The notes under the pieces: generated by a model | The model's input: only the letters and a program-made list of their open reading frames with translations | Told to the model about the DNA's origin: nothing | Database searches by the model: none | Assembly: GCA_044892525.1 (NCBI GenBank) | Contig: CM097887.1 | Coordinates: 87,150,397 to 87,214,396, forward strand | Reading direction: 5' to 3' | Source: Schmidtea polychroa | Taxonomy: Eukaryota | DNA: 64,000 nucleotides | Made by a program: the position numbers and the translations under genes | Part shown: one piece after another, positions 1-33,795 of the stretch | Numbering within the stretch: the first letter of the stretch is position 1 | How the letters are laid out: every line of letters starts with the position of its first letter

Positions 1-627
1 TTTAAGCGGAGGGCCCGCAACTCAATCTGGTCTTGAGCATTCTGAAGTTGTAGTTGGGTGATTAACTTCATCTTCTTCTTCATCTCCGCTGGTGGGAACC
101 AGGTGCACTCGAAGTTCCGACAGTGGGCCTTGACTCGTGTCCACTTAGTCCGGTATTCGTCTACCTGTCGTTGTGCCTGTTCCCTATCGGCTCGCATCTC
201 TTCCAAGAGTTTCTGCACTAAACAAAGGTAAGATCAATGATTTTTACATCGACATCGAGGGTCGGGCATTATTATGGGCATTAAGGCTAAAAGAAAGTAA
301 TCCCCTCGTCGTAGTCCTTTGCTATGCGCACCCCAAGACCGAGACCTAGTTGTCTTACTCAACCTATAGGGTTGTTGTCGCTATAGAAATGTGTATTCAA
401 CAATGATGATAGTCCACGTCATGGACATTACAAACAATCCACACAATTAAATTGTCACCGACCATCAAGACACAAACAAACCTTAAATAATTATGATGAA
501 CTGTTAAGGCCTAACATATTTTATTCAATCCTGGATTAAAGAGGTTTAATCCAGTACATAATATCACCTAATACACCCGACACTAAGGTCAGCACAAAAT
601 GATTAGTTTTGATCCCGAGTTTTCCGC

Positions 628-1110
628 CTACTCTCCGAATCCCGCGCTCTCCTTGGTCGAGCGGGTGGACGTTCGCGCGCGTCCGCGTGTCCTTGGTCGT
701 CCTGGTCCTCGTTGAGGCCGTCTTGGGTATTTTAATCCACGCTGAAGAGCCGCGGTCCGTTTCGGGTGACATTGGGCTCGAGCGTAGCCGTCGCAGTCTT
801 CTACCTCGCCAGCCAGAGTCGCTTTCTCGAGCCGGTGTAATCGGTCTATCGCATCCGTCACTTCGTCAAAAGCGTCGATCAAGGCTAACGACGCGTGGTT
901 GAGGTACGGCTCCACCTTCGGAATTACGGGGATCACGTTCTGGTAAGTCCAATCATGGATCTTGTACCAGATCCATCTAGACCTTAGGCGAGCGATTTCC
1001 GATTCTTCCCTCAATCGGACGGCTTCATCTGCCTCTTCGCCGCTACCTCCGCGGTTCCAGTCAGTCGACGAGTGACCTTCTCGTATCTTCTTTGGTTCGG
1101 TACTGAGCAT
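628..1110 (-). CDS. LTR-encoded 160-aa ORF (3' LTR copy), unknown function, basic C-terminus
   Basis: ATG preceded by CTTTTATCATTACAG-CC; locally GC-richer; identical protein in both LTRs. Confidence 0.5.
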   Translation of the reverse strand: MLSTEPKKIREGHSSTDWNRGGSGEEADEAVRLREESEIARLRSRWIWYKIHDWTYQNVIPVIPKVEPYLNHASLALIDAFDEVTDAIDRLHRLEKATLAGEVEDCDGYARAQCHPKRTAALQRGLKYPRRPQRGPGRPRTRGRARTSTRSTKESAGFGE

Positions 1111-2629
1111 GGCTGTAATGATAAAAGAGGTATTAGGCGAATCTTTGTCCCTCTATCTGTGGTCGTTTACTCCAACATGTCTAAACCCCCCATTACGATT
1201 TACATCCAAGCATACTAGGCATTCAATCCCATAGACCAATGATTTTGTATGTGAAGTAGATTAAATTACTAATTAATTTCCATATTGATTTATTTATCCG
1301 ATTAGATCGCGGATTACTAAATTAAATTAAATTTGTACATTGACGGTTGGTAAGTAAATTAAATTTAAGACAAAGAAAAATTAAAATTTCGTAAATTAAA
1401 TTAAGACAAAAATTAGAATTTCGTAAATTAAATCAGAATCGCATATTTCAAAGATTTTGTTTAATTTGATTAAAAATTAAATTTGTTATTCTTAATGTCT
1501 AATATTCTTCAAATTTTGGTTTAACGATAATATGCAATTACTATGCTACTAAGACCTACTACGAGGAGGGACATTACTACATATCGAGAAATTTTACTCG
1601 GTCTCTAGTAATACCTAACCGTAAGGGTTGTGAGTAGCTCCACCATCATCCCAGTTGGATAAGTAAAAGGACAAAAAAAAATTGGTTAGTTTTCCATTTG
1701 TTTAATTTTAGGAATTCGATCCTTCCAGCTTTCAGTCTCAACGAGGGGTGTATTCGGATGAATTCTGCAACAGTCGTGGCCTAATAATAATCTAACGTAT
1801 GCCAATTCCCCCATTTGTGACGCATTTGTGCCCCAGATTATGGGTAACCCCATTCTCGTGTTTATGGATATACATGTGGGGGAATACAGGACAAAATGTT
1901 AATCTGAAGAGGATTTAGTGAGGCTTTCTGCTCATTCCTCTGTCTACATCGTTGTTAAGCATTTTGCGGTGACTGATAATCTTTCCTGTCTATAAGTATT
2001 ATAATTTTATTTAAAAAATAAAAATTTTGTTCTTATTAAATTTAATTGAATAACTCGCTTTAACGTTATGTAATAATTTTTATATGTTTTTGTCAATTGT
2101 TTTCTCTTACATTTACATAATCAACGATTGTAATCATAGGACCCATTACTACTCCTTACTTTTCGCCTATGATCATGAGGTATATGTGTCCTAGCTTGAA
2201 TGGTCGATGTGTGGGATCCATCTTGGGGAATAACAGGGTTAAATTCGCCAAGACATCGGGGTTTTAGTCAAGGATCAGGACTTCCGCTGTCGAGGCTGAT
2301 GGTGATTGGTTCGTTTGCGAACACGCATGCATCGTCCATTTGGTCGGTCAGGGTAATTTCAGTGAGGGCACCCCTTAGTATTCAGGGTTACTTCTATAAA
2401 TAGAACCAATTTTATTGGTTAGAGTTTTCATTAGGGAAAGAGCAATAATTGATGTCGGTTTTGAAGTTTTCTATTAATAGAAACATTTCAGAAAATCGAT
2501 ATATTGGTTGGAGTAAATATATATGGAACAAAGGGGGGTAGGATCATTGTAACTAAATTTAGACCTAGAGGAATCCCAAAGATCGCTAATTAAATAAAAA
2601 AAAATTTGTAATAATTAATTAATAACGCA

Positions 2630-3150
2630 ATGACAAGGGTAGTGATAATAATAGTGGCAATGATAAGAGTGGAAGTGTTAATGGTAATAGCGCTAAATCA
2701 GTAATATTAAGAACATTAATAATGATCATCCTAATAATAATAATAATGACAACAGTGATAGTAACTACAATAATAATCATAACAGTAATAATAATGATAA
2801 TTATTATAANNNNNNNNNNNNNNNNNNNNNNNNNNNNNNNNNNNNNNNNNNNNNNNNNNNNNNNNNNNNNNNNNNNNNNNNNNNNNNNNNNNNNNNNNNN
2901 NNNNNNNNNNNNNNNNNNNNNNNNNNNNNNNNNNNNNNNNNNNNNNNNNNNNTTAATAAGAATAANNNNNNNNNNNNNNNNNNNNNNNNNNNNNNNNNNN
3001 NNNNNNNNNNNNNNNNNNNNNNNNNNNNNNNNNNNNNNNNNNNNNNNNNNNNNNNNNNNNNNNNNNNNNNNNNNNNNNNNNNNNNNNNNNNNNNNNNNNN
3101 NNNNNNNNNNNNNNNNNATACTAATAACAATAAGGTAAATTATAATGATA
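2630..3150. repeat. AAT/ATA microsatellite inside 3' LTR, partly N-masked
   Basis: (AAT)n-like flanks around N runs. Confidence 0.85.
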
Positions 3151-5074
3151 ATAAGTGTGAGTTCATAGTATTATAAGATTACTACGGATGGGGGAATCGT
3201 TTACGGAAAGTTAAGGGTGTTGTTAAGGTACAAACAAAAAACATCTTTAAAGATTTTATATAAGGTAGATTTCAATATATATAAAGGTAAGAATGAACGT
3301 TTTCTAAATGATTTTAGTTTATCATAATATATCATTATATTGAATAAAATTATGAATAATATCAACAGGATTCATTAACATACTGAACAATAGTTTGTGC
3401 AATTAGCCGACTACGAGAGCCTCTGTATTAATTTGAGTCTGGGATATTTCCCGTTTAGATGATCCTAGTGGTCTGTTTCCTATATCAGAATTAAGTGTTG
3501 ATTTTTGGTATGTTGTTTACAGAAAAGTCGAGTTAATTAAAATTTTCCTACTTTCCCGACCCAACTGGATACGGTACGATAGGCCTTATTGTAGTATGTT
3601 TCCCGCGATTACTTTCCCGAAGTTTATTTCGTCCGCATAGTCCCTATGACTATGCCAACTACCGGTATGGGTTTACCGCCCTACTCCTGGTTAGAACCAT
3701 TAGTTCGTGGCGACCTCCGGTTAATAAAAGGGGTTTATATTTTATGCATGTGGGGTCGTAGACCCAAAAATGGTGCATGTAGTCTTTAAATTGGAAACAA
3801 GGCTGATCAACATAGTGACTATAACCCGTTCACAATGCTGGTCACTCTTATTTCGTGATAGTAAGATTAAACAAAACAAAAAAAAAAAAAAAAGTTGATC
3901 AATATAATGAAATGAAATCACAAATAATAAAATAACAATTATAAATTAAATAACAATCATGATAAAATTAATCAATCGTCCTTACAATTAGTGGGTTCCG
4001 AATTTTTCAAGAAAAATTTTGGCATAAAAAGATTAAATTGTGACTAAAATGCGTCGGTATATATACCTATTTTGTACACGTGTATGTATTGATGCATTAA
4101 AACAAACTCGAATTCTTTTTATTCCAGAAGTTTCTATTTTGTAATTTTGATATTTTTAATGGCGATTTTTGCGTCATAATTTTTATTTTTATTTTTAAAA
4201 TTTTATTTCCTAAATATTTTTTGCTAATTTTTCCTCCATGATGGATTTGGAACGGTTCCAGAACATTCCATATTACTTTTAATTCAATTTTTATTTTTAA
4301 CTGATATTTTACGAATTTCTTTTTAAGAAATTTTATTTTTAATACTAATTTATTTATTTTTCTAAATTTTATTGTTTAAGGTAGCTTTTATGATGGTCAT
4401 CGCCATTTTTATAGAATGTTCTGGGTTTTTCTGGAATGTTTTTGCTACTTTTACCATCTTTTAAGTTATTCGAGTTTGTTTTTTGTAACTCTGTGTTTAT
4501 TTGGCTATTTTGAGTTAGATTTTGCATAACTTCTTGCTTTTGTATAATTTTATTTAATTTCTGTGTTTTAGGTTTTTGTTGTTTTTTCCTTTAATTACTA
4601 TTGGTTATTTGGTGTAGTTTTCAATATTTAACTATACTTTTTGCTTTTTGCATGCTGTGTACCTACACATTTCGGTCACAATTAGAAGTTTGGGTCTAGA
4701 AATCAGTTCTAGCCCAACATAAAACACTCGGGGGCCCATAAAATTGCGACCCGCAATTTAAATCACAAGATGAAGAAAATTATTTTTCAGAATACTTGCA
4801 CTATATTACAAGTGCCTACATGCAAATTGGGTCTACGAGCTACAGGGTCGTGACCTCAATACCCACATACATAAAAAGGCTACTATTATACTACATTCTA
4901 CGGATGGGTTGAAAGATGAAGAAAAAGAACGACCGAGGTCGGTCCACATAAAAATAAAATTATCATGCTCAAGAATCAATGTTATTAGTCATAATCAGTC
5001 TCAGTCTTTGAAATCACGATTGTTTGTTAATGTTTTATAATGTCATGAAATGTTTATACTGTCGTGATGTCACA

Positions 5075-6061
5075 TTAATAGAATTCGGTTGTTCGGGATC
5101 TCGTCTCGATGACGGCTCTGGTTTCAATGTTTGGGGAAGATTTGAAGTAGCTTGGTTGGTTCGTTGTTTGGACTAGCTGTTCTTCCATTGGGATACGAAT
5201 ACTTCTTGATTGTTCTTTTAGTTTGAGGGTTTTGTTTCTTCCTTTACTGGAATTGGGTTTGAGTGCAATCAGGCTCAGTACGGTGATGTTTATCATTAGG
5301 CTCGCCGCTAATAGGATCAATATTTTGAGGGATTCAGACTCTCTCGGTTCTATTACTTTGGGTTTGTTCATAATTTCTTTTAATTGGGTTGTATCCGCCG
5401 TTTCTGATTTTTCGGGCTTATTGAATTTGTTTTCTTCTGAGGTGACAACTTTCTTTATTGCTTCTAGGGTTTTAATCATCTTCTCGGAGTTCGTTGGGTT
5501 TTTGTTTATGGTAGTTAGGATTTCCCTTGTCATTTCTTTCAAGGTTTTCGTTACCTCGTTTTTAATGCTGGGTTCCTCTTTGATGATGGAAGTTATTTTT
5601 CCTTTCATTTCCTCCAAAGATTTTACTACTATTTCGCAATTGCTTGAACGTCCATAGGCGGTTGCTGTTACCTGTTGTTTTATTTCCTCTAATATTATTA
5701 CCACCATTCTCATTGCGGCTGGATCTGTTTGGGATTCTCTCTTTGATTTCTGACTTTGACATTGTTTGGCTAATGTTGCTATCTGGGTTCTGATAACTTT
5801 CATTTCTTGTTCTAACATTGTTTTTATTGTCTGAGTCATTTGCACTTCCGTTGATCCTTCAGTTGTTGGTGGACATTGCGAACATTGCAACTTGATTTGT
5901 TCGCATTCCTCATTGGGTTTTTCGCAGATTGATTTAAAGCTACTACATGTGCTATCTTCTCTACGGTATGGGTATTCTTTTTGGCATCTGATCATTGATT
6001 CTTCTGCTTGCAGGGTTCTTGGCAATGCCATTATAATCATCACCACAATTAGGCTTCTCAT
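5075..6061 (-). CDS. Type I membrane protein with one TACI/BCMA-like Cys-rich domain (TNFR-like)
   Basis: Signal peptide, CQKEYPYRREDSTCSSFKSIC...C, helical stalk, TM LKILILLAASLMINITVLSLIAL, tail containing PMEE. Confidence 0.6.
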   Translation of the reverse strand: MRSLIVVMIIMALPRTLQAEESMIRCQKEYPYRREDSTCSSFKSICEKPNEECEQIKLQCSQCPPTTEGSTEVQMTQTIKTMLEQEMKVIRTQIATLAKQCQSQKSKRESQTDPAAMRMVVIILEEIKQQVTATAYGRSSNCEIVVKSLEEMKGKITSIIKEEPSIKNEVTKTLKEMTREILTTINKNPTNSEKMIKTLEAIKKVVTSEENKFNKPEKSETADTTQLKEIMNKPKVIEPRESESLKILILLAASLMINITVLSLIALKPNSSKGRNKTLKLKEQSRSIRIPMEEQLVQTTNQPSYFKSSPNIETRAVIETRSRTTEFY

Positions 6062-6145
6062 CTTTACATATATATATATATATATACTTTAATAATAATT
6101 ACTTGGCTTTATTTACAATTTATTTACACGGTTAGTTTGTCTCAT

Positions 6146-6913
6146 TTATTGGGAGTCACCGACCTCATCCCTTAATTTTACGGGAGGTTCAGGTGCTCGT
6201 CTTTTGCTCAACTCGTTCATTCTTATTACTTCGAGTTGGGTTGCTATCAACTGTCTCTTTAGTTCTGGTATTTCTTGTAATTGCTTCTCCTTACTTTTCC
6301 ATTTTCTCTGTTTGATGGTCATTGTCGTCTGCAGTGTTTGCATGCTTCGTCGTTTTTGATTTAAAATTCTCCGGTAATTTTCTTTCAACTTCCAATGTTT
6401 TTCTGTTTCCTCTCTTTGTTCCTTGATCTCTTCCTTGAGTTTTACATTTCTCTTCTCGACTTTTTTACTTTCTCGCACTATTGTTTTTGCATAAGCATAT
6501 TGTGCTTCCAACTGTTCGATATAGACTTGGTCGATATTCACAATCTTTTTCAACTTCCTTGTTTCTGATTTCCAATAATCTTCGATTACTGCCTGAGCTC
6601 TCAACTCTACTATCTCTTGTCTCAGGTTTTTATTTTCTGTCTCTTTTCGTTTCGATTCATTTATTTCCCTCAAAATTTCTTGCTTGACAGTGTTTATCAA
6701 TCGTCTTGATTGAACCATTTGCTGTCTCAATCTCGTAATCTCTACATTTTGATTTGCAATTTTTGTTTTGAACAGATTCTTGCTGACTCTCCATTTATTA
6801 CTATAATATTTCATTGGTTCTTGTTTCATTGGTATCATATCTTGGCTTTGTTCCGGTTGGTCGTTTGACTTTCTTTCGTTACTCGTTGATTCTCTTTCTT
6901 TTAAATAATTCAT
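6146..6913 (-). CDS. Coiled-coil accessory protein (~255 aa)
   Basis: K/E/Q-rich heptads with W-K motifs; likely ATG at 6913, preceded by TTTTTGTAG-AT. Confidence 0.7.
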   Translation of the reverse strand: MNYLKERESTSNERKSNDQPEQSQDMIPMKQEPMKYYSNKWRVSKNLFKTKIANQNVEITRLRQQMVQSRRLINTVKQEILREINESKRKETENKNLRQEIVELRAQAVIEDYWKSETRKLKKIVNIDQVYIEQLEAQYAYAKTIVRESKKVEKRNVKLKEEIKEQREETEKHWKLKENYRRILNQKRRSMQTLQTTMTIKQRKWKSKEKQLQEIPELKRQLIATQLEVIRMNELSKRRAPEPPVKLRDEVGDSQ

Positions 6914-7052
6914 ATCTACAAAAATATACACATCATATTTCCTTTCGTCTTCTTTTTATTTTGAATTTTTGGTTTTTGTAATTTTTTATTTGGTTTTGGT
7001 TTTGGTTTTTTTTTTTTTTTTTTTTTTATTTACAGGCAACATCTCTCCTCGA

Positions 7053-8651
7053 CTAAATCCATGTTGCGTTATTTGGTTCGTTATTTTCTTCGAAGCCTTC
7101 ATCATTTGTGACTTCGGCAGGCTGTGGCACTTGCAACGGGAACGGGTAGAGCGGCATTAATAATATTGGTGGTTGTCTCCTTAACCGATCTACTTCCTCC
7201 CGCAATTCCGTTGAGATGTTTATTTCTTCATCCAACAAAAACGTTAATCTACTTTCGTTTTCTATCATTTCGTCTAATTCCTCTTTCAATCGTTGGGTCC
7301 TTTCCAGCGCTTTTAGCTTCTCGATTTCTGCTCTCAGATTCGCTTCGTTTTCTTCGAAGCATCGTTTTATTATTTCTGTTTCCTGTTTGGCCTGTTGAAT
7401 TGCCTTATCGCACTCCTCTCTACATTTCGCATTAAGCTCAATCTGATGCTTCCAATTCACATCCCTTTGGGTGTACATACCTTTATATCCGTTCATCTCT
7501 TGATTGGCTTCCTCCACTTCTGTTTGTAATTGTCGGATCTGTCGATCTTGCTCTGTCAATTGTTGTTCCCATCTCTTTTCCTGGTATTCATACCTTCTTA
7601 TCTCTCGAGTCTGTTTCTTTATGACTCTCCGTCTACCGTCGCTGGTCCGCGTCTTGATTCTATGTTCTCTACTCAATCGGCTGATCTCATCCTTTTGGTT
7701 TTCTATCGTTTCCCACATTTTAAATTCGTCTCTTTCTATCAGTTTCATTGGTAACTGTCTTAACTCCTCTTTGGTCTCTTTCCAATTCTTTTTCCATTTT
7801 CGGGCTTGATGCTTGAGACATGTTTCGGTTTCCTCAAATTTCTGCTGTCGTTTTCTCCACTCTACTTCTTCTTCTTCTCGCTGTGTAGCCCTGGTTTCGT
7901 AAAATTCTTGGTCTGCTTTTCGTAATCGCAGTTGTTCCTTGCTACTGATTTTCCAATAGAGCACTTGAGTTTGACTTCCTAGGTATTTATACTTCCATTT
8001 CTGAGCTTGTATTTTTATTTGTGTATTAATTCGTTCTAATACGTTATCTTTAACAATTGGTTCTCTATGCGGTGTTCTCCTCCCTTGCCCTCTGACTTCG
8101 TTTAGGGTCTTTTTGCATCTTTCCCATCTTTCTTTCATCATTGCGCATTTGCCCTTTACTTCTTCTAGTTCGGCCTTGTAATTTTGTATTTGATGTTCGT
8201 GACTATCATTCTGCCTCGTTTGGAGGGTTTCGTATTTTCGTTTCCATTGTTGCGCTTGTAGTTTTATTCGTTCCGTTTTACGCTGTTCCTCCTCGTATTG
8301 CTCCTTTGCTTCTCTAATTTGTGTCTTCTGCATTATTATCTCTCCGCATAACCTAACTATCTCCATAATTCGCTGAGTTCGTAAATTCGAGAGCTCTTCC
8401 TCCAATTCTTGGTATGTTGAGGTATTTCTCACATCCTCGGTTAATTCCTCTACCTGTTTCATCCACTTCTCTTTTGTTGCTAGTGCTTCCGCCTTCTCCA
8501 CTTCTAATTCTTGTTGCTTTTTCTCATACATGGTTTTGTACATATCTATTTCTCTCTTTACTCTTTCTGCTTCGTAGGCTTGTATGATGGATTTGTACTG
8601 TTCGAGTTGTTGCATCTCGGTTTCCACATAGGTTTGTGATTCTTTATTCAT
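7053..8651 (-). CDS. Coiled-coil accessory protein (532 aa)
   Basis: Long intact ORF; repeated QAxxWKxKY motif; Pro-rich C-terminus. Confidence 0.8.
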   Translation of the reverse strand: MNKESQTYVETEMQQLEQYKSIIQAYEAERVKREIDMYKTMYEKKQQELEVEKAEALATKEKWMKQVEELTEDVRNTSTYQELEEELSNLRTQRIMEIVRLCGEIIMQKTQIREAKEQYEEEQRKTERIKLQAQQWKRKYETLQTRQNDSHEHQIQNYKAELEEVKGKCAMMKERWERCKKTLNEVRGQGRRTPHREPIVKDNVLERINTQIKIQAQKWKYKYLGSQTQVLYWKISSKEQLRLRKADQEFYETRATQREEEEVEWRKRQQKFEETETCLKHQARKWKKNWKETKEELRQLPMKLIERDEFKMWETIENQKDEISRLSREHRIKTRTSDGRRRVIKKQTREIRRYEYQEKRWEQQLTEQDRQIRQLQTEVEEANQEMNGYKGMYTQRDVNWKHQIELNAKCREECDKAIQQAKQETEIIKRCFEENEANLRAEIEKLKALERTQRLKEELDEMIENESRLTFLLDEEINISTELREEVDRLRRQPPILLMPLYPFPLQVPQPAEVTNDEGFEENNEPNNATWI

Positions 8652-8733
8652 TGTCTAAATAATTACACTATTACTACCACTATTATTTCATACATTTATT
8701 ATCTACACTTTATACACGGAATTTTAGTTTTTG

Positions 8734-9912
8734 TTATTGATCGGCGTAGCGAAATCCTTTGATTCCCTGCGCAATCCTCTGTCTGCACATCGGACATTCC
8801 TTTACTTTTCTACTACACGTGGCGCATGCGATCAAATGTCCGCATGGCATATGAATAACTTCTACACTCCTCTCCCAACACATAGTACATTTGATATCTC
8901 GTAAGATAGCTGTTTTGACCATTGATTCTTCTTTTATTTTTGTTTCTGGTTTTTCCCTATACTGAGTTATCGCTCTGATCATATCGTACGTTGTTGTTGA
9001 TATATGTACGTTTTTCTGTAGTCTCTCTCTAATCATTTTCTTTACCCTTGTCGTGCCTATTCCGGCTGCTTTCAACGCTCTGCGCATATTGGGCTTGTCT
9101 ACAACTTCGTCAACCTCTTCTTCTGTTACCAGTACTTCTGGATATTCGGTTTCTTGTTCGCTGCGATATAGGCACCATACTTGATGTCTAATTTCTGGTA
9201 TGCCTTCTTCCGGTAATCTCTGTTGGCTTTCGCACCTTTCACACTTGAGTATTTGCTTTTCTGTCAGGTAGAATCCTCTTATTGCTAGTTCAGGTCCTCT
9301 CGTATCATCTCCGAACGTTTTCATTCTATTATCTGCTATTTGCGTGAGGAATTCCCCTTCACAAGTTGGAACATACTCATCAACGATTTTGGTTATCGCG
9401 ATGCTCATTTTCCCTCCTTTTTCGTCTTCAGTTTTCAATTTCTCCAAGGCTTCGTATTTGATTTCCGGTTTGTTGTGTACATCAAATCCCAGTACGAATA
9501 GACAAGTTGGAAATCGTTTACGATGTTCCTCCTTTGGGTGTTCTCCTTTTTTCCATTCTACTAATTTCCCTTTACAGAAACGACACGTTACTTGATCGGG
9601 TATCTCTGGTTTTCCGGAGAAGAAAAATCCGTCGCGTGCTAGCGCTCGGCTCTGTTCCTTGGTGAAAATGGTCTGATGTTCAAATGACAGATATCTCTGG
9701 TTCTCACATCTGAATTGCTCATTATCTCCCAGTTTCAAATTTTCATGTACCAAATTATAATCATTTCCCATTCTTCGATAATACGCGTAACTACTTGGTT
9801 TTGTTTTGCTGACTTCCGCATCCTTCACTCTTTCTCTAGGTGACGTATTGTCCTCTTCCTCTCTCATTGTGATCGTTTTCTTTCGGATATTCGGTCTCTC
9901 TTGATTAATCAT
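8734..9912 (-). CDS. Inhibitor of apoptosis (IAP)-like protein: BIR, degenerate BIR, UBA-like, RING
   Basis: BIR motif GFFF..DQVTCRFC..W...H...FPTC; second CxxC..H..C; C-terminal RING CTMC..PCGH..CATC..CPMC. Confidence 0.9.
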   Translation of the reverse strand: MINQERPNIRKKTITMREEEDNTSPRERVKDAEVSKTKPSSYAYYRRMGNDYNLVHENLKLGDNEQFRCENQRYLSFEHQTIFTKEQSRALARDGFFFSGKPEIPDQVTCRFCKGKLVEWKKGEHPKEEHRKRFPTCLFVLGFDVHNKPEIKYEALEKLKTEDEKGGKMSIAITKIVDEYVPTCEGEFLTQIADNRMKTFGDDTRGPELAIRGFYLTEKQILKCERCESQQRLPEEGIPEIRHQVWCLYRSEQETEYPEVLVTEEEVDEVVDKPNMRRALKAAGIGTTRVKKMIRERLQKNVHISTTTYDMIRAITQYREKPETKIKEESMVKTAILRDIKCTMCWERSVEVIHMPCGHLIACATCSRKVKECPMCRQRIAQGIKGFRYADQ

Positions 9913-10052
9913 CTATAATAAATTTCATCATTTCTTTTTGCATTTTCTTTTTCTAATTTTTATGGTTTTGGTAAGTTACTTTACTGTATACAATAACTTT
10001 ATATTTACTTTACATCGTTTTTACAAAATATTTACAGTTCCCTTCTATCCGT

Positions 10053-11477
10053 CTATCGTATTTCTATTGTTGGTCCTTCCTCGTCTAGTTCGATTAGGAA
10101 GAATATAGTGTCCTTTTCTATGTAGGACCCGTCATTAAACTGGTATAGCTGCATAAACTCTGCTACTCCTACCGCAGGATTAACCTCTGTAATCGGTTTA
10201 TTCCATGCTGGACTTGATGCTCGACAGCACATTATATGTGTCTTTTTTGATCCCAAGAGAGATATTTTTAATCTATGTCGGAATGGCCATGCTATTAGGT
10301 CGTCAAAATCTCCTTTACAGATTTGCATATATATGGCCATGCACCGATCTTTAAACTTTCCCTCACCATTTGGAAACCATCTCAATTTCATCTTTTATCC
10401 ATGTTTCTTGGCGTAGAATGGTTTGCTCACTATCGTTGTCTGGATTCCTTGCTTTGCTCGCTCCATTATTTCTGTTATTCCTTGGATTTTCCACATATAT
10501 GGCAATATTGGTAGTTCCTCTGTTGTCAGTTCCTTTGCAGTCCATTTGGTTTGTAGTTTAGTTACTTCGACTAATTTGTCGTCTAATTTCAACATCCTTT
10601 GTCTTACGGCTTCTCTCGTATTTTTGAAGCTTTCCTGTGAGCTCAGCATTTCTTTTATCATGATTTTATGTGATTTGAGTTCGTCTTTAACATCTTCGAT
10701 TGCCCTTGCTGTTAACTCTATTGCTCTCATCATCTTTTGCATGTGCTCGAATGTATTCTCCTCCACATGCTTCTTCATTTCTTCTGCTGGTAATTGTACT
10801 CTACAATCGAATGTTACCATTGGGCATTTTATCGTCTTTCTCGTGCATATCTCCCAATGTTCATTTAATCTGACGTTGTTAATTTCTCCACACTCGTTTG
10901 GGCATCTCCCTGTATATTCGTCGCAAATCCGTCTTTCTACTGCGTTTCGATGTTCCATTTCGATTTCTCTCCAATTAGCAGTTTCTCCGCAAAATTCGCA
11001 TTTTTCCGTTCGCGCTTCGCATTCCCCTTTATGTTTGGTTTTCTCTTTTCGTAAAAACTTTACCGTACATGCTTCGCATTCCAATTCTAGATATTCGCAT
11101 ACGTCTGTATGGGCTCTTAACTCCTTTACTCGACCTGTCCATTCGCATGACCTTTGGGTGCATCTTATTTTCACTTCTCTGATTTCTCGGTTCATTGCTC
11201 TATCCGGTATCGTGCCAGTGGGAACCAACTTAAATGCTTCTCCACATCCTGGACAAGTTTCTCGCTTTAGCTTGGCTAATCTTATAGCACACCCTCGGCA
11301 TAATCTACACCCGCATCGAGTTTGACTTGCTCCAATCAGTAGTCTTCTACATGCTGCATCGGCACATAATAGTCTCTCTTCGAACTCGTCCGGCTTGGCT
11401 TGATATTTTCTCATCAATTCATAGTTAATCTTTTGTTCCTCTGTTTCTCTCCGGTTCTCTTCCGCTTTGTTTTGCAT
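10053..11477 (-). pseudogene. TRAF-like adaptor/E3 (RING, TRAF Zn fingers, coiled coil, MATH) with one in-frame TAA at 10395-10397
   Basis: Reads PFYAKKHG*KMKLRWFPNG, where TRAFs have PFY...GYKM.LR..PNG; both halves are in the same frame; the MATH has the DDLIAWPF motif. Confidence 0.9.
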
Positions 11478-11566: not shown

Positions 11567-12022
11567 CTATACATCTACCGTCGAGTCCGGTTCCCCAGTT
11601 CCTGGTAGCCCGGTCATCCATTCGACTAAACTGGCAATATCATCATGTTGTCGATTTTCGTGTAACCTTCTAATTTCTTCCGCTTGCCATCTGATTTGGC
11701 TTATTAACTGATTGTTATTGTATTCTAGTTGCGCGATTATTTGGTGTTGTTCCTCTATTTTTGTAATATATATTGCATTTCTATTAATACTCTCTATCAA
11801 CGCCGTTTGGTTTCGTACCCAGTGCTCTTGAGTCTGATTTGTCAATTGGGTCATTAATTCACACTGTGCCCTCCACATGGATCCTGTTGGCTGACTCGGC
11901 TGGTTTGGCACGTTCATTTCCATCATGTCTACTGGATGTACATTCATAAGCGGCTGTTCTCTTACTTCAACAACATGTGGTATCCCATTTGGGTGTTCTT
12001 GCTCTTCGTTTCTCTGGTTCAT
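11567..12022 (-). CDS. 151-aa accessory ORF, Q/N-rich with coiled coil, unknown function
   Basis: ATG ORF with the same flanking motifs as its neighbours. Confidence 0.65.
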   Translation of the reverse strand: MNQRNEEQEHPNGIPHVVEVREQPLMNVHPVDMMEMNVPNQPSQPTGSMWRAQCELMTQLTNQTQEHWVRNQTALIESINRNAIYITKIEEQHQIIAQLEYNNNQLISQIRWQAEEIRRLHENRQHDDIASLVEWMTGLPGTGEPDSTVDV

Positions 12023-12170: not shown

Positions 12171-15100
12171 TTATACTAGTGTCGCCATGGGGCCGGAATG
12201 CAGCGTGCGCATTCCCCCATATCTTTCGTCCGTTAGTCGGTATATATCGACTTCGTGTGTCCATTCGTTAGGTGTGGGTATTTTTGGTAGTTCCGACATC
12301 CACAATCCGCTGGATTTGGGATCTCTTACCACCTCGTACTCTTCTAGATTCAGATTTTCTGTTGGAATACCGTATTCGAATTTTTCTACCTTGGGCCATT
12401 TTCTTCGGTTCCCGGGTTTTTGTTTACAGCTTTTGGTGGTTCTTATCCATTGGATCATTGCTAACGCTATTATCGTACTTACTATCGCGCTAGTTATCCA
12501 TATCATCTTTGTGATTATCGTTGTTCCATTATTTGCTTTTTCTGTCGTTAACATTATACTACCTGTGGTATTCGTTTCTGGTGCTTTGGTTTTCTTGAAA
12601 GCTTGATGTAGTCGTTCCTTCTCCTTCTCTGTTAGGTGACTGTGATTTTCTCGTTTCTCTCCCCCTTCTTGGTCTCGGGGTATCCATGGTATGTTTATTA
12701 ATTGGGCTTTTTGTCGAGTTATTGGTTGACATACGCTGGTTCCTCTTCCTTTCTTAAGGATACATACTTGGTATCGCTCTTTTCGTTTTCCTGTCTCCAT
12801 TTTAACGTCTGCACCTTGGTCTATCGGTGTTGTTGTACAGTCGATTATTCCCGTCTTATCCATTACACATATCCTTATGATTGGTTCTCCTTCTTGGTTT
12901 TTGACTGTAATTACCTCTTCACCTTTCTTGTTGAGGTTAATAGTTATCTGCACTTCCCGTCTTTCGTCTTTAATTACTTCGTTAATCCATGTTGTTGTTG
13001 TTATTAATTCGGTTTGATTTAGCTCTGTTGTTGTTTTTGTACTAACTGATTTCTTGGGCTTCTTGGTTGTTTTCTCCGTCAATGGACCTTGTTTAATTGC
13101 CATACTCCTTGGTTTGTCTTTTCTTGGTGCAGTTCTTGTTCCTTTACATACTATTATCCCTTGTGTTCCTGCGCATACCACAGTAGGGGTATTTGGTTTG
13201 ACCTCTCCCCAGAAGAATTTGTGATCCTGTGTCATATCAGTTACTATGCATATATCTCTGTCTTCTCTGATGCATACATGTGTAATTGATCGACTCCCTT
13301 TGTCCTCTATTTCGATATATTCTTCCAGAATGTTAAGTTGAAAATGTACTCCGGTTTCATTGGCTCTTTCTAGTTCCATTTCCTCTGTTGTTATGTCTAT
13401 ACAGATGTCATAATCTCCGCATAGCCCGGGGTCTCTTTTTTGGCTGCTAAAGATCTTTCCTTTTGTTATCGATCTGAAATCACAACTTACTCCTGTTCCT
13501 TCCATTAGTTGCACACATATTCCGACGGCGTTTCCGTCGTAATCGCTGACTTTTATCATAAATACTTCGCCTTCTTGGAAAGCTTCTCTTACGATTCTCA
13601 TATTTTTTGTTTCCGTTAAACAGATAGATGTTAATATTATAAATATTCTTTGTAGTAGGATTGGCTGGATTTGATTTCGAAACACTATGCTATGTAGTGG
13701 GGACTTTCGTTTTTTGTTTTCTGTTTTGTCGAATCCTTGATCTTCACCTCGACATTGGTCATCTTCGTCCTCTTCCAACTCCTCATCATCATCCGTTGTT
13801 TCTCCGCCCTCCGGATTTTGTTCTCTGTCGTTTTCCTCTGGGTTGTTATCGTTATCCCCCATCCTTTCGTCGTCGTCATCGTCGTCATTCCTCTCACCCG
13901 GGGTTTTCCCAAAAATGTCGTCCTCGACATTTGTCGCTTTGATCATCTCTTCGTATTTTTTAATTATTTCTTTTTTATCGTTGTGGATACTTTCTCGTTC
14001 TTCTTTGGTTCCTTGATATTTCCGTTGTTTCCGGTGCCATTCCCACACTAGTATTTCTAGTTGCTTTTTCATCGTATGTGCTTTTGTGCATTTCCACCAA
14101 TTACCTGTCAATTCTGCTCTATTTCTTTGTAATATTGCTTTAATGGTTTTTGGCATTGGTGGTCTTGAGTATATGGCGCTTCTTAGTACGATATTTTCGT
14201 TGTTCTGAAATTGATTTATATCAATTACTTCCGCTTTTAATTCGTTTTGTTTCCATTTGATTAACATTGCTGCGGTTCTGTCTAAGTTTCCTCTGATGGC
14301 TTCCAGAATTGTTTCAATGCTCTGTCTCAACACCTCAGCCTCTTCAGCGGTTGCATTTCCCGTGATAAAGTTTAGTATACTAGGTCTTTTTGACCTGACG
14401 GCATAACGTAAGATGGTTCGTTGTTTGTTATCTTTTTCTTTCAACGTGGATCCCGTTCTCAATAATTCTCTGAGTACTTCTCTTGACGCGCCTATTGCTA
14501 TGGCTTTCATCAGTGGAGTTTTTCCTTTACTGTTTTTGACGTTTGTTGATTGTTTGCAGTTTTCCATTATTCGTATAATCTCTAATGCTCGTTTTTCTTG
14601 TCCTGCTTTCACTGCATGATGGATTGGCCAGTTATTACTCAAATCACTTGTTAGGAACATGATTGGTAATCTCCGGATTAGTTCATATATTTGAGTCGGT
14701 ATTTGTAATCCTTCGGCATATCTTCGTCCTTTCGCATATCTTTCTGCTACTAACACTAGTTTGCCCAATACTTGGTATTTATTGGTTATATCGGCCCATT
14801 CTGGTACAATTTCTCGTGCTATTTTTACTGTCATATTCCATGTTGCTTGGCTCCTTGCCATTGCGTCAGCTTCGCTTTCTGCTTCGGTTCCTTTATGGGC
14901 GCTGCTGCTTGTTTCTCCCCTCAACATGAATATCCGTCTTGTCTGTGATCTAGTTAATCTACCGCTTACTTCTGGTTCCGTTGTGGCATTTGTTTGTGAT
15001 CTCGTGATTATCTTCCTTGTTTCTGGGTCTTTAGTGGCAGTTTTCGCTACTGCTTTACATCGACATGTATTAACGTAAATGGGTCTAATTAGTGGGTTGT

Positions 15101-16151
15101 TAACCAACTTTACTCTAGCGTTGTTCTCGTTTACATAAATGATTTCATATGGCCCTCTGCCATTACGTTGTAATTTCTTTGCTGTTCCTGGGATTAATTC
15201 GGGTGTTTCTATAATAACCCAATCTCCGACTTTAAATTGATGGTTTTGCACGTTCTTCTTTTTATCATGCAATTCCTTATAACTTTCTTGGTTGAATCGG
15301 ATGTTCATCCCTGCGGTTTTCCATATTTCTTGCATTCTCTCTTTGAACTTTGTCACATAATCATCTATCTCCATATATTGTGAGATTGGCGGTTGGTATT
15401 CGAGATCCATTGGCATGTTGCATTCCCTTCCGTACATGAGTTTAAACGGACTCATTTTCGTTGCTGAGTGTATTGACATTCGGTAAGCCATTAGGCACAA
15501 CTTAATATATTCATCCCAATCCTTTTGATGTTTACTTACATAATTGGACATCATGTCTATTAGTATGCCGTTAAACCTTTCTGTCTGCCCATTCGTTTGC
15601 GGGTGGTATGGCGAGGTTCTCAATTTGGCAATTCTGAAGTAGTTTGTTACTTCATTTATTATCTCGCTCATGAAGTTAGTTCCTTGGTCTGTTAAGATTT
15701 GTTTTGGAGTTCCATACCTGCAGCAGATCTCTTCTACTAATATCCTTGCAACCGTTCGTGCTTTTTGGTCTGGCATCGCAAATGCTTCAGGGAACTTAGT
15801 CAGATAATCAGTTATTACCAATATATACACATTTCCACTGTTAGTCTCTGGTAGTGGTCCAACTACATCCATTGCAATCATTGTCATCGGTTCTGGCGGT
15901 ATCGGCATTGGTTTCAATGGCGGCTTTAGTTTACTGCCCGTTGTTTTTCTGGTTGCGCATATCAAGCAGTTCTTTATCCATTCTTTCACGTCATCGCTCA
16001 TATTTGGCCAGTAATATTTCTGTTTGAGCCTTGCTTCTGTTTTCTTGGCTGACATATGTCCGCCCAATTTACCGTCGTGGTATTGAATCATAATTTCTTT
16101 CCGTCTACTTTCTGGTAGACACATCAGTCGTTTGTCGCCATCCATTACCAA
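12171..16151 (-). CDS. pol: Polyprotein C-terminal part: integrase, ankyrin repeats, acidic linker, second type I membrane protein
   Basis: HHCC zinc motif, D-D(35)E core (AMDVVG, TDQGTNF, QTERFNG), GPY, KGKTPLMKA ankyrins, TM near the C-terminus; joins the upstream ORF across an A8 run at ~16186-16193. Confidence 0.92.
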   Translation of the reverse strand: MVMDGDKRLMCLPESRRKEIMIQYHDGKLGGHMSAKKTEARLKQKYYWPNMSDDVKEWIKNCLICATRKTTGSKLKPPLKPMPIPPEPMTMIAMDVVGPLPETNSGNVYILVITDYLTKFPEAFAMPDQKARTVARILVEEICCRYGTPKQILTDQGTNFMSEIINEVTNYFRIAKLRTSPYHPQTNGQTERFNGILIDMMSNYVSKHQKDWDEYIKLCLMAYRMSIHSATKMSPFKLMYGRECNMPMDLEYQPPISQYMEIDDYVTKFKERMQEIWKTAGMNIRFNQESYKELHDKKKNVQNHQFKVGDWVIIETPELIPGTAKKLQRNGRGPYEIIYVNENNARVKLVNNPLIRPIYVNTCRCKAVAKTATKDPETRKIITRSQTNATTEPEVSGRLTRSQTRRIFMLRGETSSSAHKGTEAESEADAMARSQATWNMTVKIAREIVPEWADITNKYQVLGKLVLVAERYAKGRRYAEGLQIPTQIYELIRRLPIMFLTSDLSNNWPIHHAVKAGQEKRALEIIRIMENCKQSTNVKNSKGKTPLMKAIAIGASREVLRELLRTGSTLKEKDNKQRTILRYAVRSKRPSILNFITGNATAEEAEVLRQSIETILEAIRGNLDRTAAMLIKWKQNELKAEVIDINQFQNNENIVLRSAIYSRPPMPKTIKAILQRNRAELTGNWWKCTKAHTMKKQLEILVWEWHRKQRKYQGTKEERESIHNDKKEIIKKYEEMIKATNVEDDIFGKTPGERNDDDDDDERMGDNDNNPEENDREQNPEGGETTDDDEELEEDEDDQCRGEDQGFDKTENKKRKSPLHSIVFRNQIQPILLQRIFIILTSICLTETKNMRIVREAFQEGEVFMIKVSDYDGNAVGICVQLMEGTGVSCDFRSITKGKIFSSQKRDPGLCGDYDICIDITTEEMELERANETGVHFQLNILEEYIEIEDKGSRSITHVCIREDRDICIVTDMTQDHKFFWGEVKPNTPTVVCAGTQGIIVCKGTRTAPRKDKPRSMAIKQGPLTEKTTKKPKKSVSTKTTTELNQTELITTTTWINEVIKDERREVQITINLNKKGEEVITVKNQEGEPIIRICVMDKTGIIDCTTTPIDQGADVKMETGKRKERYQVCILKKGRGTSVCQPITRQKAQLINIPWIPRDQEGGEKRENHSHLTEKEKERLHQAFKKTKAPETNTTGSIMLTTEKANNGTTIITKMIWITSAIVSTIIALAMIQWIRTTKSCKQKPGNRRKWPKVEKFEYGIPTENLNLEEYEVVRDPKSSGLWMSELPKIPTPNEWTHEVDIYRLTDERYGGMRTLHSGPMATLV
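14355..14640 (-). other. About 3 ankyrin repeats
   Basis: NNWPIHHAV, KNSKGKTPLMKAI, KDNKQRTILRYAV. Confidence 0.8.
15030..16100 (-). other. Integrase domain
   Basis: H-H-CxxC, DDE, GPY motif. Confidence 0.95.
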
Positions 16152-19100
16152 TAGCCATTCTTTCTCGATTGTATATCTTTGACGATTTTTTTTCCATATG
16201 TTCTTTCAATCGATCATCGTTGTTGAATATTTTCATATCGTTTTTATCCAGGAATTCGATTATTAGTTTCAATTCGCTGTCTTCCTTTTGTTCGTTCTTT
16301 AGATTGGTAAAATCGATATCTTCCGCGATTATCATGCATATTCGCCTGACGTCATGATCCATGAGTTCTTCAAATACGAATCTCGACATGCAATCCGCAT
16401 TTGCGTTTGCTTTTCCTGACTTGAACTTGATGTATGGGGAATATTCTTGTAATTGCATTGCCCATCTCATTAATCGACTAGATGCTTCTTTATGTTGGCC
16501 CAACCAAACTAGAGGTTGATGGTCCGTAGTAATAATTATCTCGTGTCCCCATAATAAATATTTGAAATGTTTTATCGCCTGAATTATTGCTAAGGCTTCT
16601 CTTTCTGTGACCGAGTAATTCTTCTCGTGTTTTTTGAACGTCTTGCTATAATATCCGATGACTCTTTCTCGTTTCTCCTCATCCCATTGTCCTAGCACAG
16701 CTCCTGATGCATATCCACTTGCATCGGTTGCTAATAGAAAGGGCTTCTTGAAATCTGGATGTATTAAGATAGGTGAGGCTATTAACTTGTCTCTTAGCGA
16801 CTCGAACGCTATTTGCTGTTCTCTATCCCACAGAAATGGAGTGTCTTTTTTCGTTAGTTCCTGAATTGGTTTTGCTATAGTTGCATAATTTTTGATGAAC
16901 TTGCGGTAGTATCCGCATAATCCCAGAAATTCTTGTACTTGAGTCACGGTCTTCGTTATCGGACAATTCTTTATCTTTTCAACATTTCTCGGATCTGGTT
17001 CCTTTCCTTTTGCCGACACAATATGTCCTAAAAATGTGACTCTCTCCTTTGCCCAATCGCATTTTGACGGTTTCAATTTCAGCTTCCATTGTTTCAGTCT
17101 CACGAATACGTTCCTGATGTCGATTAAGTGTTGTTCGAACGTACCTGAATATATTAGCAGATCATCAATATACACCATACATTGTTTAATTCCGTGTGTC
17201 ACAAAGTTCATACACCTTTGAAACGAAGCAGCTGCGTTTGTTAATCCAAATGGCATCTTTTTAAACTGATATAAATCTTTTCCTATGGTAAAGGCTGTCT
17301 TTTCTCGGTCTTCTTCTTTAACTTTAATTTGCCAGTATCCGCTCTTTAGATCTAAAGATGTAAAGTATGCTGCTCCATGCAACATCTGTAACATTTCGTT
17401 TATGTCTGGCAGTGGATATGTATCCCTTTTTGTTACTGCGTTCAACCTCCGATAATCAATACAAAATCTCTGTGTACCGTCTTTCTTTTTGACCATTACT
17501 ACTGGGAATTGCCATGGTGAACAGCTAGGTTCTATTACTCCGGCATCTAACATCTTTTGTACTTCTTCCTCTGCTACCGTTTTTTGTGCTTCGGCTAATC
17601 GATATGGTCTTAACGTTATGGGTGTCTCATCTGTTAATGGTATAATGTGTTGAGTTACATCGCTAGTACCCAAATCCAAATCTGAAGCCGCAAAAATATT
17701 TTTAAATTCAATCAGTAGTTGTCGGAGTTGTTCCTTTTCGTCTTCATTTAGGAGTTCGCTATCGATGGTCCATAATTCTTTTTCGTCTGCTCCCTCGCTT
17801 TTTATCTCCGGCAGCTCAATGTTCATCATTGGTGTGAGTTTTCCAAGTCTCTCGTTTTCGTAGATTACTTTATCTTCCTCATCAAAATTGGTGATGTTGA
17901 TGGGTATCTCGTTATCCTCATTTATACTGACAATTTCTCTTGCCAATGGCAGCTCCCTTCTCTTCTCGAATTTTTGACTTGGTTCAAATATCATATCTCC
18001 TTTGGCTTCGTTATCGACCTTGACATAACATATTGTCTGGGTACGTGCTGGTATTATCATTTTTTCGGAGCATCTCACTTCTGTTCTCATTGTGCATATC
18101 TGTCCAGTTTTATCTTTTAATTTCATGGAACTCAAATCAATCACAATTTCTTTCAATAATTCCGGCATTACATCTGTTCCAATTATACATGATACGCTTA
18201 GCTGTCTAATGACTGCGAGGTACGTTGTAACTTTAACCCCTTTGTATTCGATCGTTGACCATACTCTTCCTACTACCGCTATGGATTGTTTGCTGCATGT
18301 TATTACATCCATGGTTGTTTCCTCAATGCATGGCCATAGTCTTCCTGGTAGCATATTCATATTTATTGCTGAGATATTTGCTCCGGTATCAATCATTGCA
18401 TCCATCTCTATTCCGTTTACTTCGACCGTGATAGTTAATGATGGTCCTGCTGGTGTCTGCAATACCGCGATCGTTCGTGTCTCCACCTCTTGCCCCACAT
18501 TTTTAACTGGCTTGATCATTGTTGGGTCCAGTGCTGCCCAATTTGGTTCATAAGCCATTGGATAAATATTCGGTACGGGTAATCTTCCGGTTCCCATTCT
18601 TATCCGTTCTCTCATTGTTCCTGGTCGTCGCATTGGTCCATTAGTTGGTGCCTGTAAATATGGTGATCCCCATGGTTTCATTTTTTCGTTTTCCCAAGTG
18701 GCTGTATTTTTGTTTATCAACATTACTCCTCCTTGATTATTATCGTCGTCGTCGAAATCATCATTGTCATCACTATCATCGTCTCGTCTGAGATTCATCC
18801 ACTTTTTCCACTTCCCGGTTCTTTTCGCTTTCTCTTGAGTTCTTTCTGCTTCTAATCTCATTATCACTTTGAACTTACGTCCGACTTCTTCGTCTGTTCC
18901 TTTCATTTGCGTTAATATTTTCAACAATCTTTTTATTCGATGAATATCCTTTGAGTGTCCATGCAACACCATTGTTTTCGCTAAGAACGGTAAGAATCCA
19001 ATTGCAAGTTTCCAATTTACTTTTCTCTCGCGCTTATAGATGTCAAAACATGCTAGCATCTGAGTTAGTATCACTCTAACTATTTGTATTATCAGAATAA

Positions 19101-25335: not shown

Positions 25336-26345
25336 ATCCTTGCTCTATAACATTCATTGCTCCAATGCCCTGATCGTTGGCATATGTTGCACGTTCGATT
25401 GTCGTTGTTCCTGAAATTATTAGTGAAATTTTGAATATTACCTCCATTGTCTTGGTTTCTCGTTTGTGGGGTTTTGAACAACTGTTGCGATCCTGGGATG
25501 AATTGATTCATTACTGGATTTGCATTATTGACTTGGTTGTTTGTGGTTGTTGTTGTTGTTGCTGGAGCTGCTGGAGCTGCTGTCATTGCTGCTACTTGTA
25601 TTGGTGTTAGGTAAGTTTCACATTTGTTGGCTATTTTTAGTGCTTCTTCTAGCGTCTCTGGTGCTCGACATCCCAAGGTTGCTCGTATATCTTCTCGTTT
25701 CATGCCATCTACGAATACGGCTATTATCTTGTCTTCCGGAACTGGCTGATTTGAATCGAAGGCTTCTCGTGCTAGTCGTCTCAATTCGCATGCGTACAGT
25801 GCGTTGGATTCGTTATATTTCTGCTTTCGATGCAGAAAGTCTAACATTTTTCGATTTCCCTCTTTTTCGGTACCGAATGTTTTTATTAAAAACTCCTTGA
25901 TCTCTTTCCACGTTCTCAACTTTGTTGCATCACATTTCGCCTCCAAGTATACATCTTGGGCGCTTCCCTTTAGATATAGGGGTATTCGTTCTCGTACGAC
26001 TATGTCTGGCCAGTGACATATCGTAATGTATACTTCAAATTCTTTTATAAATGTTTCTAGCTGGTTTATATTTCCATCGAATGGCTCTCCTCGAAATTTC
26101 TCTCTGAATTCTCCAATGTTGACGTGCACATTACTTGTTTCCGGTGGGTCCGTTACCCTTTGTTCATTCGTGTTTCCGTCCGACATTATCTCTTGGCACA
26201 GTACGGTTATCTCTGTTGTCTCGGATATATTTTCCTCTTCTTCAGTTGATTCGACGTCGCTTATTGGATCTAATTCGGTTCGTTTGAAATCGTCGCTGTT
26301 CTCAAATTCGTTAGTTAAACTGTCTGATTCAAATACTGTTTCCAC
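25230..26345 (-). CDS. gag: Gag (capsid plus two CCHC knuckles); true start uncertain
   Basis: PFDGN...FIKEFE...LYLKGSAQDVY capsid motif; CNICQRSGHWSNEC and CQKCGRRGHTENIC. Confidence 0.92.
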   Translation of the reverse strand: METVFESDSLTNEFENSDDFKRTELDPISDVESTEEEENISETTEITVLCQEIMSDGNTNEQRVTDPPETSNVHVNIGEFREKFRGEPFDGNINQLETFIKEFEVYITICHWPDIVVRERIPLYLKGSAQDVYLEAKCDATKLRTWKEIKEFLIKTFGTEKEGNRKMLDFLHRKQKYNESNALYACELRRLAREAFDSNQPVPEDKIIAVFVDGMKREDIRATLGCRAPETLEEALKIANKCETYLTPIQVAAMTAAPAAPATTTTTTNNQVNNANPVMNQFIPGSQQLFKTPQTRNQDNGGNIQNFTNNFRNNDNRTCNICQRSGHWSNECYRARMCQKCGRRGHTENICRGPTMPTIVTSLDTWQENAR

Positions 26346-28994: not shown

Positions 28995-29477
28995 CTATGG
29001 GAGGTATACTACAACTCTTTTTCGAACGTTCGTATCGCATGCATTACATCGTTTTACTTTTTCTGCGCAATTCTCGCAGTAGCATAAATGGCCACAGGGT
29101 ATCATCATTACCCGTATTTCGTTGTTTCTACATATAAGGCATTTTCTAAAATCTTTAACTTGGTGTTCAATTGCTTCTCTGATTTCGTCTTCGATTGTTT
29201 CCATTTTTATCATTATCTCTTGCCATTTGATGTTAAACTTCGCATTATCCAATCGTAAATTTTGGATTTGGTAAACTCTTTCAGTAGTCAGTTCCGCATT
29301 GGGTGTTGCTATTCTCATCATAACACATACTTCCTCAGCTTGCGGTCTTGGTTTCAAGCTCAGTTCATCTTGGATTTTTAATAACTGGTCTGCTTTTCGA
29401 TTTAGTCGTTGTAGTGAATTGCTTGTCAAATTAACAAAGTTTTCGAGTTTCTTTACAATGTAGCCGGCTAATTCCAT
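28995..29477 (-). CDS. ORF upstream of gag: coiled coil plus IAP-type RING
   Basis: CLIC..MIPCGH..CENC..CNAC..VVVYLP at the C-terminus. Confidence 0.85.
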   Translation of the reverse strand: MELAGYIVKKLENFVNLTSNSLQRLNRKADQLLKIQDELSLKPRPQAEEVCVMMRIATPNAELTTERVYQIQNLRLDNAKFNIKWQEIMIKMETIEDEIREAIEHQVKDFRKCLICRNNEIRVMMIPCGHLCYCENCAEKVKRCNACDTNVRKRVVVYLP

Positions 29478-31001: not shown

Positions 31002-31410
31002 TAAACAAAGGTAAGATCAATGATTTTTACATCGACATCGAGGGTCGGGCATTATTATGGGCATTAAGGCTAAAAGAAAGTAATCTCCTCGTCGTAGTCC
31101 TTCGCTATGCGCACCCCAAGACCGAGACCTAGTTGTCTTACTCAACCTATAGGGTTGTTGTCGCTATAGAAATGTGTATTCAACAATGATGATAGTCCAC
31201 GTCATGGACATTACAAACAATCCACACAATTAAATTGTCACCGACCATCAAGACACAAACAAACCTTAAATAATTATGATGAACTGTTAAGGCCTAACAT
31301 ATTTTATTCAATCCTGGATTAAAGAGGTTTAATCCAGTACATAATATCACCTAATACACCCGACACTAAGGTCAGCACAAAATGATTAGTTTTGATCCCG
31401 AGTTTTCCGC

Positions 31411-33762: not shown

Positions 33763-33795
<33 letters not shown>

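Follow-up and report, generated by a model that had tools for sequence, protein, structure and literature searches.

Burro1 (GYPSM1) of Schmidtea mediterranea is a giant Gypsy-like long terminal repeat (LTR) element whose MATH and BIR cargo had been noted by 2007-2019 (PMC6431247), and its BIR-RING protein, B-IAP, is reported to shield stem cells against death mediated by caspases (Lee et al., Dev Cell 2026, cited in PMC13465017); the Burro IAP reportedly also aids host regeneration (PMC13465017). Large DNA viruses of vertebrates likewise direct proteins of their own at host TNF/TRAF signalling. LMP1 of Epstein-Barr virus and STP of herpesvirus saimiri are TRAF-recruiting mimics, and in mammals the complex that TNFR2 or CD40 forms with TRAF2 includes cIAP1/2. 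Poxviruses encode viral TNFR decoys (PMC8401223). Here we analyse a stretch of 64,000 nucleotides from Schmidtea polychroa (assembly GCA_044892525.1, contig CM097887.1, positions 87,150,397 to 87,214,396 of the forward strand; hereafter the window), whose minus strand holds a young Burro-type Gypsy LTR retroelement of ~36 kb with genes for a TRAF, an IAP and a membrane protein that is a candidate TNF receptor (TNFR) mimic.

Like Burro1, the element exceeds 30 kb, has LTRs of ~5 kb, BIR cargo and accessory open reading frames (ORFs), and encodes one giant polyprotein (4,791 amino acids against 4,873 in Burro1) with a MATH domain, an env between gag and pol, and ankyrin repeats (PMC6431247). The total length, the very long LTRs and the gag-to-ankyrin order in a frame of ~4,800 amino acids place it in the Burro type, a known type of giant retrotransposon that an earlier note on this stretch, made from the sequence alone, had overlooked. 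Unlike Burro1, for which the accessible descriptions name neither a TNFR-like or other membrane accessory ORF nor a full-length TRAF (PMC6431247), and to which it is likened by description only, it carries both a membrane accessory ORF and a full-length TRAF. It shares with the B-IAP system a BIR and RING protein borne by a planarian giant retroelement (PMC13465017), and with the viral decoys and mimics a mobile-element protein apparently aimed at host TNF/TRAF signalling, although the latter belong to large DNA viruses of vertebrates, the poxvirus decoys are soluble, and no homology is claimed. Our literature searches showed no TNFR mimic on any retrotransposon, although these ORFs may already be covered in the text and supplements of Lee 2026 and Grohme 2018. 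We add an orphan surface protein whose cysteine domain is invariant, together with evidence that the neighbouring TRAF is poorly suited to the PMEE motif in the tail of that protein.

Selected cargo of a giant retroelement

The receptor candidate, the IAP and the TRAF are cargo kept by purifying selection. They belong to a cassette of six intronless accessory ORFs downstream of pol, which consists of a 151-amino-acid ORF, the TRAF, the IAP, two coiled-coil-like ORFs and the 328-amino-acid membrane protein. The earlier note had placed receptor, TRAF and IAP side by side; its coordinates and intronless minus-strand ORFs are right, but it left unmentioned the pair of coiled-coil-rich ORFs that separates receptor from IAP. 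In the 781-Mb genome searched (four large contigs), at least 122 copies of the membrane ORF have 94-100% identity (122 scored among 828 candidates), with an internal stop in four. The sample for selection analysis, 40 loci from a BIR search, was picked for score diversity and is non-random; two loci belonged to other families, and removal of partial copies left 34 receptor, 39 IAP and 37 TRAF copies from 41 including the window. The ratio of replacement to synonymous changes (dN/dS) is a count of codon alleles common to at least three copies, not a tree-based estimate, and the copies recombine. On this count it is 0.28 for the receptor, 0.16 for the IAP and 0.18 for the TRAF, with no shared stop codon, and private alleles lie nearer neutrality (0.36-0.50 for the same three genes). 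All three are intact together in 16 of the 33 copies that hold all three.

The explanation that we prefer, at roughly even confidence, is that each of the three genes is cargo selected in its own right, and that they act in parallel on host TNF/TRAF/IAP death signalling, the membrane protein being a probable receptor mimic. This protein would be displayed on the host cell atop its helical-repeat stalk, and we lean slightly towards its binding, as decoy or mimic, an extracellular host protein that is conserved; a ligand of the TNF family would be the most likely partner. The cassette TRAF, with its RING and zinc fingers well kept, may serve as an adaptor that interferes or whose specificity is altered, and the IAP would keep caspases blocked. 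Taken together, these activities would keep alive the cell in which the element is being copied. Of the death-signalling role put forward in the earlier note, the part that we retain is that three selected genes plausibly act on the TNF/TRAF/IAP pathway; their assembly into a single complex is not supported. With an invariant ectodomain, the surface protein would carry the influence of the element from the cell interior into signalling between cells, as happens with large DNA viruses.

In the model planarian, TRAFs are expanded and required for cell survival (PMC6109357, PMC7586133), and the host genome here contains dozens of TRAF-type MATH loci. The NF-kB switch envisaged in the earlier note is doubtful because work on the model planarian identified no clear homologue of NF-kB (PMC13563047); JNK/p38 or caspases would be the likelier output. 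Six-frame family searches for TNF and RHD returned no candidates, and the RHD search was blank despite reported planarian RHD genes, so that it is too blunt to indicate absence.

The membrane protein and its six-cysteine domain

The membrane protein (5075..6061, minus strand) is an orphan of predicted type I topology, with a signal, a six-cysteine domain, a stalk, a transmembrane segment and a 61-residue tail. Hydropathy peaks at residues 1-19 (1.4) and 247-265 (2.6), which puts the transmembrane segment at ~246-267, and the stalk of ~180 residues is built of ~25-residue helical repeats (lag-25 z 5.1, a value reached by 0 of 1,000 shuffles). The cysteines, at positions 26/39/46/53/60/63 with the spacing x12-x6-x6-x6-x2, delimit a candidate degenerate single TNFR-type cysteine-rich domain (CRD; residues 26-63, 5873..5986, minus strand). 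This is the most constrained segment among receptor, IAP and TRAF: residues 20-64 have 12 shared changes, every one of them synonymous (p 1.4e-9). Synonymous and replacement counts are 28 and 45 for the stalk (Fisher p 4e-5) and 6 and 5 for the tail (Fisher p 0.014). Such constraint would fit a contact surface for a partner that the element has no power to change, and the 45-residue domain is a ready bait for the little-known TNF-type ligands of planarians.

That the membrane protein is akin to TNF receptors, without being classed as a member of the superfamily, seems to us slightly the better view, as suggested by weak ESM Atlas matches and by the cysteine spacing. TNFR-family clusters make up five of the seven Atlas rows shown: Grindelwald twice, BCMA/TACI-like, Fn14 and Wengen. 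Their scores, 0.77-0.80, fall under the 0.9 line, a level of low recognition at which the tool grades a match as a lead only. Drosophila Grindelwald, Fn14, BCMA and TACI are single-CRD TNFRs which, like the candidate, are of type I, have one small N-terminal cysteine domain and a short tail in which a TRAF site may lie, and contain no death domain (PMC8024323). The C2 module of Grindelwald has the form C-x3-C-x11-C-x3-C with nested disulfides, and Grindelwald itself is very poorly homologous to the remaining TNFRs (PMC8024323), so that a missing CRD profile match lowers the probability of TNFR membership without excluding it. The stretch F42-x3-C46-x6-C53-x3-K57 of the candidate shares its register with Grindelwald C2, both outer-disulfide partners being replaced, and the low-confidence model places two helices there. 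Ahead of it, C26-x12-C39 has a spacing that we take to be that of BCMA and Fn14.

Several results weigh against this kinship. No Pfam family matched the receptor, cysteine domain included, no match was found among PDB sequences, and homologues were absent both from 1.84 billion representatives and from a second large protein collection (180-574 amino-acid entries only). The AlphaFold models are of low confidence (predicted local distance difference test scores of 42 and 49), with two helices toward the C-terminal side of the cysteine domain, and fold searches with them, which at this model quality carry little information, gave no Foldseek match at E<=0.001 and a best VIA-align Z of 2.6 among 48,161 chains. 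Neither sequence nor fold evidence therefore identifies the cysteine domain as a CRD, and the TNFR-like label of the earlier note found no confirmation in family, sequence or fold searches. As residues 1-80 alone gave no usable Atlas match and the scores of the whole protein are below 0.9, the Atlas result may reflect topology. The ~180-residue helical-repeat stalk is unlike anything in Grindelwald, Fn14, BCMA or TACI, the x12-x6-x6-x6-x2 spacing misfits the C2 consensus as such, and there is no significant similarity to these receptors. Matches of the cysteine domain to pIgR (E 0.13-0.27 only) were dismissed as chance, as was the one match of a TACI-CRD2 search, and pattern searches for distant receptor relatives returned only the same family and simple repeats.

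The membrane protein might instead be unrelated to TNFRs, a fast-evolving surface protein of viral type that serves in attachment, in blocking superinfection or in contact with immune cells. Its cysteine knot would then bind some other host protein, and its PMEE would have arisen by chance. Besides the missing homology and fold support and the fusion glycoprotein that the element encodes, this alternative draws on a sister family revealed by a MATH search (locus L132), in which the TRAF, the 151-amino-acid ORF and a coiled-coil ORF are 29%, 29% and 31% identical to those described here. The terminal protein of the sister family is also of type I and occupies the same slot, but no relationship to the receptor can be detected (HHalign probability 0.09%). 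It lacks the six-cysteine domain, and of 16 tails 13 carry YxN and one a motif of the TRAF2 type. The coherent Atlas neighbourhood of single-CRD TNFRs, the C2-like register with its paired loss of cysteines and the other death-pathway cargo nearby speak the other way, and we consider an unrelated protein rather unlikely, although it is the strongest competitor of the receptor mimic that we prefer. The sister terminal protein (L132:5344-6012; G000:C2:35914843-35915508) evolves fast (down to 50% identity), has a conserved Glu in its membrane span and matches no Pfam family.

Tail motif, MATH grooves and IAP

The earlier note read PMEE in the receptor tail (residues 291-294; 5180..5191, minus strand) as a match to the TRAF2-binding consensus. 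The match is present, but its occurrence is not above chance: [PSAT]x[QE]E arises in 25.7% of 20,000 tail shuffles and in 29% of 61-residue windows of the element's proteins, and three further such motifs lie in the receptor ectodomain. The earlier note had named lack of PMEE conservation among copies as an outcome that would refute its proposal, and this outcome did not occur: PMEE is found in 30 of the 30 nearest loci and in 32 of 34 wider copies, the other two having PLEE and PMEK (PxEE in 33/34). Nearly the entire tail is conserved alongside it, 57 of 61 columns being without a shared variant. No TRAF6-type PxExx[aromatic/acidic] motif occurs in the tail.

Two MATH domains are encoded by the element. 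The cassette TRAF (10053..11477, minus strand; 474 amino acids in intact copies) comprises a RING-like region, zinc fingers, a coiled coil and a MATH domain, of which the zinc fingers (zf-TRAF) and MATH are supported by Pfam and the RING by cysteine pattern only. It was correctly named in the earlier note, which overlooked that the window copy is broken by a stop at codon 361, within MATH, that splits it into 360 and 112 amino acids. This stop is private to the window; among 37 near-full-length copies codon 361 is sense in 35, masked in one and a stop in one, and the TRAF is intact in 20/37. The second MATH domain lies within the polyprotein (22528..22992, minus strand), matches TRAF3 (E 1e-30) and has the canonical receptor-binding residues.

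In TRAF2, R393 and Y395 read the second Glu of the motif and S453-455 the first, and a pocket that includes F456 and C469 is used as well (PMC6125299). When the 37 cassette TRAFs are aligned to TRAF3/5 chains, the residue equivalent to R393 is R (26 copies), M (6), I (4) or K (1), and the one equivalent to F456 is W (25), R (10) or G (2); the Y395-equivalent is F, the serine triad reads S-P-A and the C469-equivalent is V/A. Copies with the M and R groove alleles still carry PMEE. The polyprotein MATH has RIYPNGD and S-[T/A]-C-Y in 17/17 covered copies (20 fetched plus the window), with T at the C469-equivalent, and its groove matches the S-A-C-Y of a host TRAF. The hot spots of TRAF1/2/3/5 for Px(Q/E)E are thus for the most part lacking in the cassette TRAF and present in the polyprotein MATH. 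By the residues aligned, the receptor groove of the cassette TRAF is eroded and polymorphic, and it would be a poor partner for PMEE. Distinct alleles of the cassette MATH (10053-10400; loci L061-L100), of about 85% vs 96% identity, differ at the groove, and these alleles could be the product of diversifying selection against host partners. A MATH tree of 30 rows with unresolved deep nodes gives the cassette domain the longest stem (1.02), and a word search with this domain found nothing.

On the other side of the balance, the groove argument rests on few aligned positions, because whole-domain dN/dS is alike in both MATH domains (0.23-0.26); groove and tail could have co-adapted; and because the PMEE codons show zero shared changes, synonymous or replacement, selection specifically on the motif cannot be claimed. 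PMEE may be functional, although we lean towards its not being so; if it is, it would recruit a canonical MATH (of host TRAFs or of the polyprotein) and not the cassette TRAF.

The IAP (8734..9912, minus strand; 392 amino acids) was rightly identified in the earlier note. It has one intact BIR with CCHC ligands (Pfam E 5e-16), a degenerate BIR-like stretch, a helical linker and a C-terminal RING (Pfam E 2e-12) in which shared-allele dN/dS is 0.04. The best single-domain match of the BIR is XIAP BIR2 (49.7 bits), followed by cIAP2 BIR1 (44.5 bits). No CARD was found in the protein, which does not conform to the cIAP1/2 type with three BIRs, a CARD and a TRAF2-binding BIR1. Two BIR pattern searches of the genome returned the same family and single-copy loci, and no further multi-copy IAP family.

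The earlier note had proposed one self-contained complex, which would require a stalk-clustered receptor to recruit the cassette TRAF through PMEE and the TRAF to bring the IAP, for a ligand-independent survival signal. The three protein types are those of the TNFR2/CD40-TRAF2-cIAP1/2 complex (TRAF2 part, PMC6125299), all three genes co-occur and are intact together in about half of the copies counted above, cIAP2 BIR1, the TRAF2-binding BIR, is among the BIR matches, and PxEE is nearly always kept. This family, moreover, has the IAP as well as the cysteine-rich receptor and the sister family has neither, but two families cannot weigh such a co-occurrence. Unlike TRAF2, the cassette TRAF is without most of the residues that read PxEE (it lacks Y395 and two of the triad serines, and often R393/F456) and varies there while the tail is constant; the motif occurs at chance level; the IAP, with its one intact BIR closest to XIAP BIR2 and no CARD, differs from cIAP1/2; and the source on the model planarian describes no clear NF-kB (PMC13563047). 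The sister family keeps the TRAF without IAP (0 of 21 loci) or cysteine-rich receptor, so TRAF cargo does not need the triad. We regard a single complex as improbable, and judge just as improbable a retrotransposon with its own complete TNF-receptor module, in which a pre-clustered single-CRD mimic, a re-tuned TRAF and an IAP ligase jointly rewire planarian stem-cell death signalling. A milder form, a retrotransposon-borne TNF-receptor mimic acting through host TRAFs, is a good deal more plausible, somewhere between a tentative suggestion and an even bet.

Passive hitch-hiking, whereby conservation would merely reflect young copies, is very improbable: the copies are indeed 91.5-100% identical (mean 94.7%) and the window TRAF and pol are broken, but hitch-hiking is contradicted by a shared-allele dN/dS of 0.06-0.28 over all six accessory ORFs with no shared stop, against 0.24-0.50 for private changes.

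Organization of the element and related loci

The 3' LTR (2..4721) continues past the window start and matches the 5' LTR at 30785..35684 (both minus strand); the pair aligns in two blocks, one of 2,809 nt with 99.75% identity and one of 1,606 nt with 99.3%. By Pfam the polyprotein (12171..26186, minus strand) contains, in order, gag, MATH, viral fusion glycoprotein, protease, reverse transcriptase, RNase H, integrase and ankyrin; it is uninterrupted in other copies (4,791-amino-acid open frames), whereas in the window pol is split and three frames of 318, 3048 and 1324 amino acids remain. BCL2-like and dUTPase-like motifs, which belong to the Burro type, gave no Pfam match in the element; the dUTPase of the Burro review came from HHpred (PMC6431247). 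At its end (12171-13700), the integrase frame encodes a second membrane protein, made up of a signal-like stretch, an ectodomain with cysteine, a membrane-spanning segment and a tail; the sister family likewise has one. A 160-amino-acid ORF 5' of gag (28995..29477, minus strand) has an IAP-type RING (zf-C3HC4_3, E 9e-12), the second of the element, with a coiled N-terminus and no BIR. Between LTR and gag, the leader holds a 132-bp tandem repeat in 2.4 copies (27265-27582).

Three minus-strand cassette ORFs have no assigned function: the 151-amino-acid ORF (11567..12022; dN/dS 0.06), with its homologue in the sister family, and two charged coiled-coil-like ORFs of 532 (7053..8651; dN/dS 0.12; ~31% homologue there) and 255 amino acids (6146..6913; dN/dS 0.16; no Pfam match, a positional counterpart there). 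Selection on them is as strong as on TRAF and IAP, and with counterparts in the sister family they would represent an older core of the cassette. In that family the order is TRAF, two coiled-coil ORFs and terminal membrane protein, the run being contiguous in 14 of 21 loci, and the terminal ORF has at least 150 matches in the genome.

An AG lies at most three bases 5' of the ATG in 7/7 accessory ORFs, and most of the spacers before them (6062-6145, 6914-7052, 8652-8733, 9913-10052, 11478-11566, 12023-12170 and 29478-29520) hold TGTAAATA(A) motifs, a pattern that suggests separate spliced and polyadenylated mRNAs for each ORF. Neither splice joints nor expression were seen in contigs from four presumed-RNA runs, which do cover the cassette. 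Outside the element, nested direct and inverted repeats at 41340-47247 are probably another transposon. Elsewhere in the genome, host TRAF-like genes with uninterrupted frames of 454-476 amino acids, some of them paired, lie at G000:C2 16.2-29.2 Mb and C4 15.0 and 28.4 Mb (L133-L139) and adjoin large clusters of intron-containing TRAFs, and a probable exon of a classical host TNFR (PF00020, 24.9 bits, below cut-off) is found at L193:1500-1587 (G000:C3:78915304-78915390).

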